From Escherichia coli (GTDB lineage Bacteria > Pseudomonadota > Gammaproteobacteria > Enterobacterales > Enterobacteriaceae), in NCBI RefSeq assembly GCF_044647545.1, contig NZ_CP172818.1: 64,000 nucleotides of DNA, one strand, 5' to 3'. Below the pieces are notes generated by a model. That model was not told the DNA's origin, ran no database searches, and was given only the letters and a program-made list of their open reading frames with translations. Positions 4,428 to 54,169 of this stretch are shown here, one piece after another. Each line of letters opens with the position of its first letter. Position 1 is the stretch's first letter. Made by a program: the position numbers and the translations under genes.

Positions 4428-6125
4428 GTGCACGAAATATTCAACATGCTGCTGGCGGTCTTCGATCGGGCAGCGTTAATGCTTATCTGCCTGTTTTTTC
4501 TCATCCGTATCCGCCTGTTTCGCGAACTGTTGCACAAGTCGGCACACTCACCGAAAGAGCTGCTCGCCGTTACCGCCATTTTCTCGCTGTTCGCCCTGTT
4601 CAGCACCTGGTCCGGAGTTCCCGTAGAAGGCTCGCTGGTGAACGTACGTATTATCGCGGTGATGTCAGGCGGGATTCTGTTTGGCCCGTGGGTGGGCATC
4701 ATTACCGGCGTGATTGCGGGTATTCATCGTTATTTAATTGACATCGGCGGCGTGACGGCGATCCCCTGCTTTATCACCAGCATTCTGGCGGGTTGTATAT
4801 CGGGCTGGATCAACCTGAAAATCCCCAAAGCACAGCGCTGGCGCGTCGGTATTCTCGGCGGCATGTTATGTGAAACGTTGACCATGATTCTGGTGATTGT
4901 CTGGGCACCAACTACCGCGTTGGGGATCGATATCGTCTCTAAAATCGGCATTCCAATGATCCTCGGTAGCGTCTGTATCGGCTTTATTGTGCTGCTGGTG
5001 CAAAGCGTTGAGGGCGAAAAAGAGGCCAGCGCCGCGCGGCAGGCCAAGCTGGCGCTGGATATCGCCAACAAAACGCTGCCGCTGTTTCGCCATGTCAATA
5101 GCGAGTCATTACGCAAGGTCTGCGAAATTATCCGCGATGACATTCACGCCGATGCGGTGGCGATTACAAATACCGATCATGTGCTGGCCTATGTTGGCGT
5201 GGGTGAGCATAACTATCAGAATGGCGATGATTTCATTAGCCCGACTACCCGCCAGGCGATGAATTACGGAAAAATCATCATTAAAAACAATGATGAAGCC
5301 CACCGCACACCAGAGATTCATTCCATGCTGGTGATCCCATTGTGGGAGAAAGGCGTTGTGACCGGAACGCTGAAAATTTACTACTGCCACGCGCATCAGA
5401 TAACCTCGTCATTACAGGAAATGGCGGTCGGTCTGTCACAAATCATCTCCACGCAACTGGAGGTTTCGCGCGCTGAGCAGCTGCGTGAAATGGCAAATAA
5501 GGCAGAGCTTCGCGCCCTGCAAAGCAAAATTAATCCCCATTTCCTGTTTAACGCTTTGAACGCTATTTCATCGTCAATCCGCCTGAATCCGGATACTGCT
5601 CGCCAGCTGATCTTTAATTTGTCGCGCTATCTGCGCTATAACATTGAATTAAAAGATGATGAGCAAATCGATATCAAAAAAGAGCTGTATCAAATTAAAG
5701 ACTATATTGCCATTGAGCAGGCCCGCTTTGGCGACAAGCTGACGGTTATCTATGATATTGATGAAGAGGTGAATTGCTGCATTCCCAGCCTGCTGATCCA
5801 GCCGTTGGTGGAAAACGCCATTGTCCACGGTATCCAGCCTTGCAAAGGTAAAGGCGTTGTCACCATCAGCGTTGCAGAGTGCGGTAATCGGGTACGTATT
5901 GCGGTGCGAGATACCGGGCACGGCATCGATCCAAAGGTGATTGAGCGGGTCGAAGCGAATGAAATGCCGGGCAATAAAATTGGCCTGCTGAATGTCCATC
6001 ATCGCGTGAAGTTATTGTATGGCGAGGGGCTGCATATCCGCCGCCTGGAACCAGGAACGGAAATTGCGTTTTACATTCCTAACCAACGCACCCCAGTCGC
6101 CTCACAGGCTACCTTATTGCTTTGA
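4428..6125 (+). CDS. ypdA: LytS-type sensor histidine kinase of a pyruvate-responsive two-component system
   Basis: 565 aa; GTG start; N-terminal multi-TM 5TMR-LYT-like region, then GAF-like region and His-kinase/HATPase C-terminus. Confidence 0.88.
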
Positions 6126-45798: not shown

Positions 45799-46814
45799 TA
45801 ATTACGCCCCGCCGCTAACAGCTTGTCTAACTCGCCGCCGCTGGTGAAGTGGGTTTTCATCACTTCCGGCCAGGAGCCAAATTTGTCTTCCACGCGGAAC
45901 AGCTCGGTCTGCGGGAATTTGTTTTTCAGTTTGTCCATGACTTCCGGGTTATTTACGCGGTAGTAATAGTCGGTGATGATGGTCTGCGCCTGCGGGCTGT
46001 AGAGCCAGTTCAGGTAGGCTTTTGCTGCTTTTTCCGTACCGTTGGCCTGCACGTTTTTATCGACCCACGCCACCGGGAATTCCGCAAGAATGTTAGTTTT
46101 CGGAATAACTACTTCGAAGCCCTGCGCTTCATACTGTTTACGGATGTTGTTCACTTCCGATTCGAAGCTAATCAGTACATCGCCCAGCCCACGTTCGGCA
46201 AAAGTGGTGGTCGCGCCACGACCGCCAGTATCGAACACTTCAACGTTTTTCAGGAACTGAGTCATAAACTGTTCAGTTTTGGCTTTGTCGCCACCGTCGG
46301 CTTTGTCCGCTGCGCCCCATGCCGCAAGGTAGGTGTAACGCGCGTTACCTGACGTTTTCGGGTTCGGGAAAATCAGCTTCACGTCGGAGCGCACGAGGTC
46401 GTTCCAGTCGTGAATATTCTTCGGGTTGCCCTTACGCACCAGGAAGCCCATGGTGGAGTAGAACGGCGAGCTATTATTCGGCAGGCGCGACTGCCAGTCG
46501 GCCGGGATAAGCTTGCCTTTGTCATGCAGGATTTGTACGTCGGTCACCTGGTTATAAGTGACAACGTCTGCTTTTAAGCCCTGCAAAATCGCCAGCGCCT
46601 GTTTTGATGACCCGGCATGAGATTGTTTTATCGTCAGTTTGTCGCCGCCGTTATCTTTTGCCCATTGTTGCTCAAACGGCGGATTCAGGGCGGCAAACAG
46701 CTCGCGGGAGACATCATAAGAACTGTTCAGCAGTTCCGTTGCCTGTACATGGCCCGCCAGCAGCAGAGAAGCGACCAGCGCGAGTGAGTTCTTTTTCAGT
46801 AAGTTAACGGCCAT
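45798..46814 (-). CDS. cysP: thiosulfate-binding periplasmic protein
   Basis: 338 aa; signal peptide [25 protein letters not shown]. Confidence 0.93.
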
Positions 46815-46970
46815 TGCGCACCCTTATAAATTTAACGACTTTCTAATAGCCATCATATTTATAACGGACGTGAAAGGAGTAACGGTTTTATATACCGTTT
46901 GGTGATTTGGAAGTTGAAAAGGGAAAAGACGAAATCCTCCCCACAAATGCAGGGAGGAAACAGAGGTGAA

Positions 46971-47762
46971 TCAGATGCCGACGCTAACCGTCTCCGGTAG
47001 TGTGCTGCCGCCATCAATCACATTCTGTGTACCGGTTAAATAGCTGGATTCATCCGATGCGAGGAAGGCCGCCAGTTCGCCGACTTCCAGCGGATCGGCG
47101 AGGCGACGCATCGGGATTGCTTTCGCCATTTCAGTCAGCACCGATTCTGGATCTTCCGGGTTCGACTGGCGGGCAATGCTTTCCGCCATTGGCGTGCGAA
47201 CGTATCCAGGGCAGATGGCGTTAACGCGAATACCAGACTGCGCGTACTCCACCGCCAGCGATTTAGTCAGGCCAACAATCGCCGCTTTCGTTAAGGCGTA
47301 CGCCGTTTCGCCCGGGTCTGCCACCATATCGCCAGTGACTGAAGACATCATCACAATGCGGCCATCTTTGCGGGCAATCATCTCCGGCAGCACCGCCTTC
47401 GTGACGTTCCATACGCCTTTTATATTGATATCAATATGGAAATCGCGATCTTCATCGCTCATATCGAGGAAACTGCCCAGACGACAAACGCCTGCGTTAT
47501 TCACCAGAATATCAATGCGCCCTTCTTTTTCCTTAGCGCGCTTAATAGCTGCGGCTACCGACGCCGGGTCACGCACATCGGCGACAACCGCCGTACAGCG
47601 ATGACCACGGCCACACAGTTCGTCCGCCAGCTTTTCGATCTCAGGGGAGATATCCAGCAAGATTAGGTTTGCGCCATGACGCGCAAAAGTTCTGGCAATT
47701 CCTTCGCCAATTCCCTGCAATGCGCCCGTAATCAGTGCTGTCTTGCCCGTGAGTTTACCCAT
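46971..47762 (-). CDS. ucpA: short-chain dehydrogenase/reductase (SDR)
   Basis: Reverse-strand ATG at 47760-47762 with AGGAG upstream gives 263 aa MGKLTGKTALITGALQGIGEG (Rossmann TGxxxGxG). Confidence 0.88.
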   Translation of the reverse strand: MGKLTGKTALITGALQGIGEGIARTFARHGANLILLDISPEIEKLADELCGRGHRCTAVVADVRDPASVAAAIKRAKEKEGRIDILVNNAGVCRLGSFLDMSDEDRDFHIDINIKGVWNVTKAVLPEMIARKDGRIVMMSSVTGDMVADPGETAYALTKAAIVGLTKSLAVEYAQSGIRVNAICPGYVRTPMAESIARQSNPEDPESVLTEMAKAIPMRRLADPLEVGELAAFLASDESSYLTGTQNVIDGGSTLPETVSVGI

Positions 47763-47890
47763 TTTAATGCTCTCCTTGTTAATACAGAGCGTTACACTCC
47801 ATTCCCTCTGAAAATACAGGATAAACAAAATATTGCTGCGGATCAGCTCACTAATTCAGGAAAATCTCAATCCAGTCGCTGCTTTATGCA

Positions 47891-48748
47891 TCATTTCAGG
47901 CGTTGCGTTAGCTCACTGCTGCGCTCAATCATTTTCAATGACTCCACATCATTGAGTTGCACAAGGCCAACAAACAGTAAATCGGTAACAGAATTTTGCG
48001 CCGTGCGGGTGGACATCGACGAGCTGCGCCATTCGGTTTCGCCAGAAACGGTATCGAGGGTGTAATGCGCCAGCCGCCGCAGCGGGGAATCGGTTAATGA
48101 GGTAATGGCAATCACCGTCGCCCCCTGCTTTCGCGCTGCCTCGGCGCACAAGACAATCTCTTTTTTACTGCCACTGTAAGAGATAGCGATTTGTACATCG
48201 CCTTTTTTTAGCGCCTGAGAAACGGTGGCTTGTACGTGGGTGTCGGCCTCACAGGCCACGCGATAACCAATTTTCATCAGTTTGAACGACAGATCGCGCC
48301 CCACCAGCGCCGACCCGCCCAGGCCCGTTATCTGGATAAACGGTGCTTTACTGATGACCTCAATGATTTTTTGCAGCCGCGCGTAGTCAAACAACGCGCA
48401 GGTTTGCTCCAGCGCCTGCTCTTTTTCGCGATTCAGTTTACGGGCAATCACTTCCAGCGAATCATCACTGGTAATCGAACTGTGCAGGTGCAGCGCCGTG
48501 GCATTCGTTTTCTCCCGGCTGGCACTGTATTCGCCAATTAACGCCATACGCAATTCAGTAAATCCTTGCGCGCCGAGCTTCTGGGCAAACTTCACAATAC
48601 TCGACTGGCTGATGCCGAGCTGTTTCGCCATCTTGCGCGAAGAGACGGATTTCAGCTCACTCACGTTGGCCCGCAGAAAGTCAGCAATTTTTTGCTCGTT
48701 CCCGGTAAATTCACTTTCCGCATTGCGTATTTTCGTCAGGTACAACAT
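47891..48748 (-). CDS. murR: RpiR-family repressor of MurNAc catabolism
   Basis: Reverse-strand ATG at 48746-48748 gives 285 aa [25 protein letters not shown]; N-terminal HTH, C-terminal SIS domain. Confidence 0.88.
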
Positions 48749-48911
48749 CTTCCACTCTCCTGGGCTGGCAGCAAAAATTCCGCTTAAGTTCTTATGACGC
48801 TCTTCACACTCTGCGAGTGTAGACTCAATGATTCCTTTAAGTCTGTCAATTCGGGATATATGATTCCATACATCTGCAATTATTTGATCGTAAATAGTAA
48901 GGTCACCACCG

Positions 48912-49808
48912 ATGCAACTTGAAAAGATGATTACCGAAGGCTCGAACGCCGCCTCGGCTGAAATTGACCGCGTATCAACGCTGGAAATGTGCCGGATTAT
49001 CAACGATGAAGATAAAACCGTGCCGCTTGCCGTTGAGCGCGTACTGCCGGATATCGCCGCGGCGATCGATGTTATCCACGCCCAGGTAAGCGGCGGCGGG
49101 CGTCTGATTTACCTCGGTGCGGGAACATCCGGTCGTCTGGGGATTCTGGATGCCAGCGAATGTCCGCCCACCTACGGCGTGAAACCAGGCCTGGTAGTTG
49201 GATTAATTGCTGGCGGCGAATATGCCATTCAGCACGCGGTGGAAGGCGCGGAAGATAGCCGGGAAGGTGGTGTTAATGATCTGAAAAACATCGGATTAAC
49301 CGCGCAGGATGTGGTGGTTGGCATTGCGGCCAGTGGTCGCACGCCGTATGTGATTGCCGGGCTGGAATACGCACGCCAGCTCGGCTGCCGTACAGTGGGA
49401 ATTTCCTGTAATCCGGGGAGCGCTGTTTCCACCACCGCTGAGTTTGCTATTACGCCGGTGGTTGGGGCTGAAGTGGTCACCGGTTCTTCGCGGATGAAAG
49501 CAGGCACGGCGCAGAAACTGGTGCTCAATATGCTTTCCACCGGGCTGATGATTAAATCCGGCAAAGTGTTCGGCAACCTGATGGTCGATGTGGTCGCCAC
49601 CAACGAAAAACTGCATGTGCGCCAGGTCAATATCGTCAAAAACGCTACCGGATGTAGCGCAGAGCAAGCGGAAGCGGCATTGGTTGCCTGCGAGCGCAAC
49701 TGTAAAACGGCCATTGTGATGGTGCTGAAAAATCTCGATGCCGCAGAAGCAAAAAAACGCCTGGATCAACACGGCGGCTTTATTCGTCAGGTTTTAGACA
49801 AGGAATAA
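48912..49808 (+). CDS. murQ: N-acetylmuramic acid 6-phosphate etherase
   Basis: 298 aa SIS-domain protein; divergent from murR. Confidence 0.93.
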
Positions 49809-49811
49809 CCC

Positions 49812-51236
<1,425 letters not shown>

Positions 51237-51240
51237 TAAT

Positions 51241-52542
51241 ATGAAACGGACAATGCTCTGCCTTTCTCTGCTGGCTGTCAGCTGTAGCGTCAGCGCCGCA
51301 AAATACCCTGTTCTGACAGAAAGTTCGCCAGAGAAAGCAGGGTTTAACGTCGAACGGCTTAATCAGATGGATCGCTGGATAAGCCAGCAAGTTGATGATG
51401 GTTATCCCGGCGTAAACCTGCTGATTATAAAAGATAATCAGATTGTTTATCGCAAAGCCTGGGGCGCGGCGAAAAAGTATGATGGCAGCGCGTTAATGGC
51501 GCAGCCGTTAAAAGCCACCACCGGGACGCTGTATGATCTGGCCTCAAACACCAAGATGTACGCCACTAACTTCGCCCTGCAAAAGCTGATGAGCGAAGGC
51601 AAACTGCATCCTGACGATCGGATTGCGAAATATATTCCAGGGTTTGCCGACAGCCCGAACGATGCGATCAAAGGCAAAAACACGCTGCGGATTTCTGATC
51701 TGCTGCATCACAGCGGCGGTTTCCCGGCAGATCCGCAATACCCGAATAAAGCGGTCGCGGGCGCGTTATATTCCCAGGATAAAGGCCAGACGCTGGAGAT
51801 GATCAAGCGCACGCCGCTGGAGTATCAGCCCGGCAGCAAGCATATCTACAGCGATGTCGATTATATGCTGCTTGGATTTATCGTCGAGTCGGTTACCGGT
51901 CAGCCACTTGACCGCTATGTTGAAGAGTCGATTTATCGCCCGCTCGGCCTGACGCATACGGTGTTTAATCCGCTACTGAAAGGCTTTAAACCGCAACAAA
52001 TTGCCGCCACGGAACTCAACGGCAATACCCGCGATGGCGTGATTCACTTCCCGAATATCCGCACCTCCACTCTCTGGGGTCAGGTGCACGATGAAAAAGC
52101 CTTTTATTCGATGGGCGGTGTTTCCGGGCACGCAGGTTTGTTTTCCAATACCGGCGATATTGCGGTGTTAATGCAAACGATGCTGAACGGCGGTGGCTAT
52201 GGTGATGTGCAGCTGTTCAATGCAGAAACGGTGAAGATGTTCACCACCAGCTCTAAGGAAGATGCCACTTTTGGCCTTGGCTGGCGCGTGAATGGTAATG
52301 CCACCATGACGCCGACGTTTGGCACGCTGGCAAGCCCGCAAACCTACGGTCACACAGGTTGGACCGGGACGGTGACCGTTATCGATCCGGTGAATCATAT
52401 GGCGATTGTGATGTTAAGCAACAAGCCACATTCGCCAGTTGCCGATCCACAAAAAAATCCCAATATGTTCGAAAGCGGTCAGCTACCGATTGCAACTTAT
52501 GGTTGGGTAGTTGATCAGGTGTATGCGGCGTTAAAGCAGTAA
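51241..52542 (+). CDS. yfeW: penicillin-binding protein 4B (class C beta-lactamase fold)
   Basis: ATG at 51241 gives MKRTMLCLSLLAVSCSVSAA signal peptide; SxxK-type motif ASNTK; the ORF-track frame extends 29 codons upstream into murP. Confidence 0.88.
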   Translation: MKRTMLCLSLLAVSCSVSAAKYPVLTESSPEKAGFNVERLNQMDRWISQQVDDGYPGVNLLIIKDNQIVYRKAWGAAKKYDGSALMAQPLKATTGTLYDLASNTKMYATNFALQKLMSEGKLHPDDRIAKYIPGFADSPNDAIKGKNTLRISDLLHHSGGFPADPQYPNKAVAGALYSQDKGQTLEMIKRTPLEYQPGSKHIYSDVDYMLLGFIVESVTGQPLDRYVEESIYRPLGLTHTVFNPLLKGFKPQQIAATELNGNTRDGVIHFPNIRTSTLWGQVHDEKAFYSMGGVSGHAGLFSNTGDIAVLMQTMLNGGGYGDVQLFNAETVKMFTTSSKEDATFGLGWRVNGNATMTPTFGTLASPQTYGHTGWTGTVTVIDPVNHMAIVMLSNKPHSPVADPQKNPNMFESGQLPIATYGWVVDQVYAALKQ

Positions 52543-52548
52543 TAAAAA

Positions 52549-52575
52549 GGCCAGTCAGTGTGTTACTGGCTGGCC
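52549..52575. terminator. hairpin terminator between convergent yfeW and yfeX
   Basis: ggccagtcagtgtgttactggcc with a T-run on the minus strand (for yfeX) and a weaker T-tract on the plus strand. Confidence 0.55.
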
Positions 52576-52598
52576 TTTAATCAATGAATCAGAAACGC

Positions 52599-53582
<984 letters not shown>

Positions 53583-53593
53583 TCAGACGCAAA

Positions 53594-54169
53594 TTAACGC
53601 CGCCAGATAATTTTACTGACTTTCCAGTTTTTCAGGGTATCGTCCGAAGGCATTAACCCTTCAGGGCCACTCCATTCCCCGCTGAACTGGTAGCTAATAT
53701 GTTGACTGCCTTCGGCTTTACATTCGACGGCACGATTATCATCACTGTCGGCCTTTTGGCAATTGCCAAATGCTTTGCTGTAAAGGTCACTAAACGGTGT
53801 ACCGATTTTAACACCGGTGTCAGCAGGAATATCGCTATCCAGCACATCAATGCGGCTGATCGTGCCTTGATCACCGTTAATCACCATCGCCACGTTGTCG
53901 CCTTTCATCACTTCAAAAAAGCGCACCACGTTGCCGTTCGCGGTTTTCATTCCGCTGCGCAGGCGATAATCGCCATCAAGCGCATCAGCAATGGCTTGTT
54001 CTTGCAGTGGTGTGGACGCCGTTAATTCACCCACGCCCTGCTCGCTCACTTTGGTGGATGATCCAAACCAGTTCCACGGGTTAGCGGCCGACCAGTTAAC
54101 TGACGACATCGTGGAACAGCCGGTCAGCATCAACGGCATAGCGCATAACATTAAACGCAGCGATTTCAT
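53594..54169 (-). CDS. yfeY: predicted outer-membrane lipoprotein (DUF1131)
   Basis: 191 aa; lipobox LTGC in MKSLRLMLCAMPLMLTGCSTM. Confidence 0.85.
   Translation of the reverse strand: MKSLRLMLCAMPLMLTGCSTMSSVNWSAANPWNWFGSSTKVSEQGVGELTASTPLQEQAIADALDGDYRLRSGMKTANGNVVRFFEVMKGDNVAMVINGDQGTISRIDVLDSDIPADTGVKIGTPFSDLYSKAFGNCQKADSDDNRAVECKAEGSQHISYQFSGEWSGPEGLMPSDDTLKNWKVSKIIWRR

Follow-up and report, generated by a model that had tools for sequence, protein, structure and literature searches.

Probable face-to-face promoters at the murR/murQ-murP-yfeW control region of an Escherichia coli chromosome, and natural deletions of murR and yfeW among E. coli genomes

The window (the whole 64,000-nucleotide stretch of Escherichia coli DNA analyzed here) very likely carries the E. 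coli divergon for MurNAc catabolism and recycling, in which the murR and murQ promoters face each other and murQ, murP, and yfeW are read as one mRNA. The control region between murR and murQ is already known: it is real, well annotated, and characterized in K-12. The locus governs the re-use of the cell wall sugar MurNAc and is well described, so its confirmation adds little. The K-12 literature covers the binding of MurR, induction, dependence on CAP, and the operon of three genes; the exact operator, CAP, and promoter positions given below are those that we infer for this window. The genes and the control spacer lie as follows.

46971-47762, minus strand: ucpA (RefSeq annotation)
47891-48748, minus strand: murR, repressor of the RpiR/AlsR family (HTH plus SIS), 285 aa (RefSeq; NF012026 equivalog)
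48749-48911: murR-murQ control spacer, 163 bp, 42.3% G+C
48912-49808, plus strand: murQ, MurNAc-6-phosphate etherase, 298 aa (RefSeq; TIGR00274)
49812-51236, plus strand: murP, MurNAc-specific PTS EIIBC, 474 aa (RefSeq; NF007152)
51241-52542, plus strand: yfeW (pbp4B), secreted protein with the beta-lactamase fold, 433 aa (RefSeq; NF002968)
52599-53498, minus strand: yfeX, convergent with yfeW

The window segment from 47800 to 52700 showed ∼100% identity to many E. coli chromosomes (e.g., those of IMT16316 and of an ST648 strain) and was matched in 5,425 of 5,426 complete E. coli genomes. Gene coordinates were moved to the window from the RefSeq annotation of an E. coli chromosome that matches it at ∼100% identity with one 1-bp indel. 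Protein identities rest on the NCBIfam equivalog cutoffs, and all four proteins passed: MurR scored 636.7 bits against NF012026 (cutoff, 408), MurQ scored 512 bits against TIGR00274 (cutoff, 302), MurP scored 944 bits against NF007152 (cutoff, 516), and PBP4B scored 886 bits against NF002968 (cutoff, 385). Residues 91 to 285 of MurR, with the SIS domain, match the solved E. coli MurR structure (PDB 7EN5; E value, 1e-116). PBP4B carries the motifs SNTK, YSD, and HTG and a signal peptide. It has no solved structure of its own; its nearest relatives in PDB, matched at E values of 1e-23 or weaker, are Flp, esterases, and ClbP, that is, esterases and peptidases sharing its fold. The gene identities and divergent layout proposed in an earlier note on this DNA agree with the literature, RefSeq, and these equivalogs, and the coordinates it gave for a 163-bp spacer between murR and murQ, 48749 to 48911, are exact. 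Its description of the spacer as AT-rich is moderately true, the G+C content being 42.3% compared to 51.9% for the window, which falls within the lowest 7.5% of 163-bp windows. An Rfam scan of positions 46500 to 54000 found no RNA family. The E. coli genome search placed one copy of the murR-yfeW region on a record that is classed as plasmid and found the region at two places in a single genome.

The closest known system is the K-12 murR/murQ-murP-yfeW divergon (Jaeger and Mayer, 2008, J Bacteriol 190:6598; Zhang et al., 2022, NAR 50:5948), whose genes, gene order, spacing, and 163-bp spacer are all the same as those of the window. The K-12 spacer used in EMSA (PMC9177960) is nearly identical to the window spacer. 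Compared to the K-12-like spacer, the window differs at 2 of 163 positions (161 identical), and neither position is in the CAP site, the two operator-like sites O1 and O2, or the −10 element described below. Because the differences spare these elements, experiments on K-12 carry over to the window. The differences from K-12-like strains in the rest of the locus are allelic only: identity is 95% overall and 95.1% in murQ, the MurR proteins are 96% identical (about 94% for murR DNA), and PBP4B has 433 aa in the window versus 434 aa in the K-12-like strains.

In K-12, the spacer between murR and murQ has two neighboring repeats to which MurR binds; it represses murQP as well as its own gene, and MurNAc-6-phosphate, which releases MurR, is the inducer (PMC9177960). 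For the anatomy of the spacer, 29 loci encoding MurQ relatives were fetched, and MurR, MurP, YfeW, and UcpA were located in each. Invariant blocks were defined from the alignment of the spacers of Escherichia species and Citrobacter, in which four parts are invariant: T[T/A]TGA-N6-TCACA, AGACTCAATGATTC, ATATATGATTCCA, and TAAGG. The elements recognized in the window are as follows.

48767-48781: third MurR-box-like site, decayed and adjoining murR, GGCAGCAAAAATTCC, with 2 mismatches to GGAAT-N5-ATTCC
48793-48808 (center, 48800.5): putative cAMP-CAP site TATGA-CGCTCT-TCACA, placed by sequence evidence
48821-48835: O1, operator-like 15-mer AGACTCAATGATTCC, with the invariant block AGACTCAATGATTC
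48853-48867: O2, operator-like 15-mer GGGATATATGATTCC, inverted repeat GGGAT/ATTCC, with the invariant block ATATATGATTCCA
48898-48902, plus strand: murQ ribosome-binding site TAAGG, 9 nt before the ATG, invariant in the Escherichia and Citrobacter alignment

Several features suggest that O1 and O2 are the two published MurR repeats. Both are 15-mers of the GGAAT-N5-ATTCC type and lie 32 bp apart, which is three helical turns, and both of their invariant blocks contain ATGATTC. The octamer ATGATTCC occurs only twice in the 64 kb, both times in the spacer, once in O1 and once in O2 with the same 32-bp distance. Sites resembling GGAAT-N5-ATTCC number three in the 163-bp spacer versus 36 in the 64 kb. 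Both the octamer pair and this density go beyond chance, as does the CAP match described below. Paired boxes 32 bp apart are also found in the murR-adjacent spacers of Citrobacter, Salmonella enterica subsp. arizonae (S. arizonae), and Rahnella. As the counterpart of O2, S. arizonae has the perfect palindrome GGAATATATGATTCC, and Vibrio/Vibrionaceae have TGGAATATTTTATTCCA. In E. coli, the left arm of O1 fits the box consensus at 3 of 5 positions. An automated search for inverted repeats found none in the spacer; it misses palindromes as imperfect as the operator-like ones, which become visible only when genera are compared. At the position of the third box (E. coli 48767 to 48781), Citrobacter and S. 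arizonae have perfect boxes, GGAATCAAAAATTCC and GGAATCATTAATTCC, respectively, and in E. coli this box may likewise be bound by MurR.

On sequence evidence, a cAMP-CAP site is present in the window upstream of the predicted murQ promoter. The sequence at 48793 to 48808 agrees with the consensus at 9 of 10 positions; the 64 kb contain just one other sequence with no more than one mismatch. In the cross-genus comparison, its half-sites, T[T/A]TGA-N6-TCACA, are kept in Escherichia spp., Citrobacter, S. arizonae, and Rahnella. Regulation by both proteins is also listed for murP, for which a published table has the entry “CRP, MurR” (PMC3141248).

Promoters were sought with a simple weight matrix scan, the results of which are consistent with a consensus scan. 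Promoter-like sites were found on both strands of the spacer and, alone, are not beyond chance. Because such scores are common (a score of ≥7 was found ∼1.7 times per kb per strand), the promoter positions are treated as hypotheses. The candidates are as follows.

48803-48832, plus strand: alternative murQ promoter candidate TTCACA-18-AATGAT, score 7.2, predicted start at ∼48839
48836-48864, plus strand: best murQ promoter candidate TTTAAG-17-TATGAT, score 8.4 (top on the plus strand), predicted start at ∼48871
48906-48879, minus strand: best murR promoter candidate GTGACC-16-AATAAT, score 7.7, predicted start at ∼48872
48923-48894, minus strand: alternative murR promoter candidate TTCAAG-18-TACTAT, score 6.4, predicted start at ∼48887

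Three observations favor TATGAT as the main murQ −10 element. First, this candidate places CAP at about −70.5, which is a class I geometry. Second, its position is conserved: in B2-type E. coli, E. albertii, and Citrobacter alike, no candidate scores above a TATGAT −10 element that ends 48 to 49 nt before the ATG. Third, it is retained in a natural deletion of murR, described below, whereas the −35 element of the AATGAT candidate, which overlaps the CAP site, is removed. O2 overlaps the −10 element of the TATGAT candidate, and this assignment means that O2 would cover the −10 element and O1 the −35/upstream region.

The published K-12 promoters are reportedly “nonoverlapping face-to-face (convergent) promoters” with transcripts that are complementary at their 5′ ends; the CAP site is said to be of class I, with CAP acting as a roadblock for murR transcription. 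The complementary ends are a point in favor of TTCACA-18-AATGAT (start at ∼48839) as the main murQ promoter, since murQ and murR transcripts would then overlap by ∼33 nt. CAP would act there in a class II-like manner, and O1 would lie over the −10 element. This candidate is also matched in the consensus scan, has a weight matrix score of 7.2, and has its AATGAT within the invariant O1 block. However, it scores below the TATGAT candidate, and it puts the center of the CAP site at about −38.5, which misses the class II optimum by three bp and conflicts with the class I site reported for K-12. Moreover, its −35 element is absent from the murR deletion allele of 1,047 genomes, and murQP must still be expressed in these genomes. 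We therefore regard it as unlikely that AATGAT marks the main promoter. Since multiple promoters have been reported for murQ (PMC3141248), the AATGAT promoter may coexist with the TATGAT one.

The murQ and murR promoters probably face each other, as judged from the arrangement of the candidates on the two strands. The plus-strand candidates all fall within 48803 to 48864, and those on the minus strand that have a valid −10 element fall within 48879 to 48923; it is because every valid minus-strand candidate lies to the right that the promoters are read as face-to-face. At this consensus level, the arrangement does not support the “overlapping divergent promoters” of the earlier note. In favor of back-to-back overlapping promoters, in which the murR promoter would lie upstream of that of murQ or be interleaved with it and neither polymerase would cross the promoter of the other, are the divergent genes and the short AT-rich spacer, and a perfect minus-strand TTGACA at 48849 to 48844 might seem to supply the −35 element of such a murR promoter. 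This TTGACA was rejected, as the −10 element that goes with it, GAGTCT, is not usable and lacks the essential A2 and T6. With every valid minus-strand candidate to the right of the plus-strand ones, and with the reported “face-to-face (convergent) promoters” of K-12 to the contrary, the back-to-back arrangement is very improbable. Within the face-to-face arrangement, the best-scoring starts, ∼48871 for murQ and ∼48872 for murR, leave almost no 5′ complementarity. One of these two start assignments may be wrong, the alternatives being ∼48839 for murQ or ∼48887 for murR.

The switch would then work as follows. MurR, the product of the minus-strand gene, would bind the repeats placed at 48821 to 48835 and 48853 to 48867, where it would cover the −35/−10 region of the murQ promoter and stand in the way of murR transcription. 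MurNAc-6-phosphate would free the operators of MurR, and cAMP-CAP bound at 48793 to 48808, ∼70 bp upstream of the murQ start, would activate the murQ promoter. The murR promoter, to the right of that of murQ, would fire leftwards, and a murR transcript from the predicted start at ∼48872 would run across O2, then O1, and then the CAP site. Because the promoters face each other, the RNA polymerase transcribing murR would have to pass the operators and the CAP site. This means that the repressor and CAP would also act on the transcript of the regulator itself. For annotators, it means that divergent gene pairs need not have back-to-back promoters. On the other side, a single mRNA would carry murQ, murP, and yfeW and end at a hairpin at 52546 to 52578. 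Two further features of this transcript are as follows.

49800-49804, plus strand: murP ribosome-binding site AAGGA, inside the end of murQ
52546-52578: predicted two-way terminator hairpin between yfeW and convergent yfeX, 15-bp stem, −24.1 kcal/mol, z score of −5.06

The gaps of 3 to 4 bp noted earlier between the genes were confirmed: CCC (49809 to 49811) separates murQ from murP, and TAAT (51237 to 51240) separates murP from yfeW. Sequence scans found no convincing terminator or promoter between murQ, murP, and yfeW, and the terminator-like matches inside murP are weak, the scanned region having 6 compared to 7.2 in shuffled sequences. A 2016 mBio paper (PMC5061867), citing Jaeger and Mayer (2008), describes the K-12 murQ operon as murQ, murP, and the PBP4B gene, with murR divergent, and gives two promoters, Pq and PR, together with a terminator. 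In addition, of 39 cell wall genes, just four had a common expression pattern: yfeW, murR, murP, and murQ (PMC8813938). The SMRT-Cappable-seq supplements had no entry for murR, murQ, murP, or yfeW. Cotranscription of yfeW with murQP thus fits the published three-gene operon and rests on the literature and the 4-bp gap.

A different reading is that yfeW is transcribed mainly from a promoter of its own in the end of murP, outside MurR control, and that the tight spacing is incidental. There is indeed a lone plus-strand promoter-like site, TTCACC-17-TAACGT, at 51195 to 51223, just 5′ of yfeW, and yfeW is dispensable and variably found beside murQP in E. coli and in other genera, as would be the case for a loosely attached gene. 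Yet the site has a background-level score, sites like it occur at background density, and its predicted start is only ∼11 nt before the ATG. The 4-bp gap without a terminator, the three-gene operon of K-12 (PMC5061867), and the expression pattern common to yfeW, murQ, murP, and murR (PMC8813938) also speak against an independent yfeW, which we consider highly unlikely. The earlier note had taken the single murQ-murP-yfeW transcript to link MurNAc recycling to a penicillin-binding protein. The transcript stands on the literature operon and the tight gaps, but the functional link is weak, as yfeW is missing in ∼23% of complete E. coli genomes and at the murQP loci of several other genera.

By its sequence, the hairpin at 52546 to 52578 can serve both yfeW and yfeX: the T run is short on the plus strand (TTTAAT) and good on the minus strand (TTTTTATTA). 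The window differs here from the K-12-like strains, which have ∼186 bp of additional REP/BIME-type sequence between two copies of the yfeW-yfeX hairpin (locus L004, 6247 to 6485), whereas the window has a short 56-bp yfeW-yfeX spacer with one hairpin (52543 to 52598). This spacer also contains the 1-bp indel relative to the otherwise identical strain IMT16316, and the coordinates of yfeX are hence 52599 to 53498.

Comparison with other genera showed the same arrangement with different passengers. In S. arizonae, Citrobacter sp. Res13, and Rahnella, murR is divergent from a murQ-murP operon, and the spacer has the same CAP site and paired boxes as the window. Unlike Escherichia, however, these bacteria have a porin-like gene (361 aa) and a DUF2057 gene between the control region and murQ. 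The porin-like gene belongs to Pfam Porin_4 in Rahnella (loci L011, 3286 to 4987; L016, 3233 to 4958; and L020). This version with the porin-like and DUF2057 genes may represent an earlier and more complete state of the operon. Downstream of murP, S. arizonae and Citrobacter Res13 have yfeW, which is absent from Rahnella, Citrobacter Awk4 and NCU1, and Vibrionaceae. Because it is variably present both in E. coli and beyond Escherichia, yfeW travels with the operon as an optional passenger rather than as a conserved partner, judging from these gene neighborhoods.

The murQP region of Vibrio is like that of the window in that murR is divergent from murQ-murP and the spacer has a CRP site and boxes of the GGAAT-N5-ATTCC type, and it is unlike the window in lacking yfeW. 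By our own reading, V. metoecus and V. mimicus have a near-perfect CRP site, TGTGA-N6-TCAC, directly upstream of the box and of a TAGAAT −10 element, with a class II-like spacing. Control of murQP by CRP/HapR has been described, in the case of HapR for V. cholerae only (eLife 2023, PMC10328515).

Within E. coli, the divergon is not always complete. Among 5,426 complete genomes, the body of murR is present in 4,378 and that of yfeW in 4,152. The murR deletion removes 872 bp, corresponding to window positions 47950 to 48821 (deleted at 2641 to 2652 of locus L002 and at 4899 to 4910 of locus L009); it takes murR and the CAP site and begins exactly at the left edge of O1. Its junction was found in 1,047 of the 5,426 genomes, and the names of these genomes (among them O25b:H4-ST131, E2348/69, NRG 857C, and APEC O1:K1:H7) are typical of phylogroup B2, an assignment that rests on strain names. 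E. albertii NBRC 107761 has the same deletion junction with a homologous 12-bp filler. Compared to the window, which is the complete form, the allele of B2-type E. coli and E. albertii is without murR, the CAP site, and yfeW; murQ and murP remain, as do the two operator-like boxes, the TATGAT candidate, and the terminator hairpin. Despite the common deletion, the B2-type murQ is no closer to that of E. albertii (89.9%) than other E. coli murQ sequences are.

The yfeW deletion removes 1.18 kb, corresponding to window positions 51325 to 52505 (L002, ∼5153; L003, ∼6025), and leaves the first ∼84 nt and last ∼37 nt of the gene and the terminator hairpin. About 1,274 complete E. coli genomes are without yfeW, and the coverage classes suggest that these comprise the murR-deleted strains and about 230 others. 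The junction is identical in strains with and without murR. Another route of loss is seen in a genome labeled E. coli SCPM-O-B-8794, the representative of its GTDB species, in which a REP-like sequence replaces yfeW (L010, 7322 to 7470). The murP gene of this strain has an apparent frameshift, as it was matched by tblastn in two segments.

One tentative and, in our estimate, rather unlikely reading of these alleles is that the deletion common to B2-type strains and E. albertii is ancient and has made murQP constitutive and cAMP independent, and that PBP4B serves MurNAc scavenging, not wall synthesis. If this were true, constitutive murQP expression in the main lineage of extraintestinal pathogens would be new biology at a textbook locus, and the loss of PBP4B alongside murR would point to a role in MurNAc scavenging. 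The murR-deleted strains, including those of the ST131 type, are without the repressor, the CAP site, and PBP4B and are thus natural mutants for studies of MurR control and of PBP4B function. No paper on population-level murR or yfeW deletions was found in a literature search that was not systematic, and these deletions may be the only part of the present results that is undocumented. Finally, murQ is unusually diverged between E. coli lineages, with 93 to 95% identity among the window, K-12-like, and B2-type sequences compared to 97 to 99.6% for ucpA.
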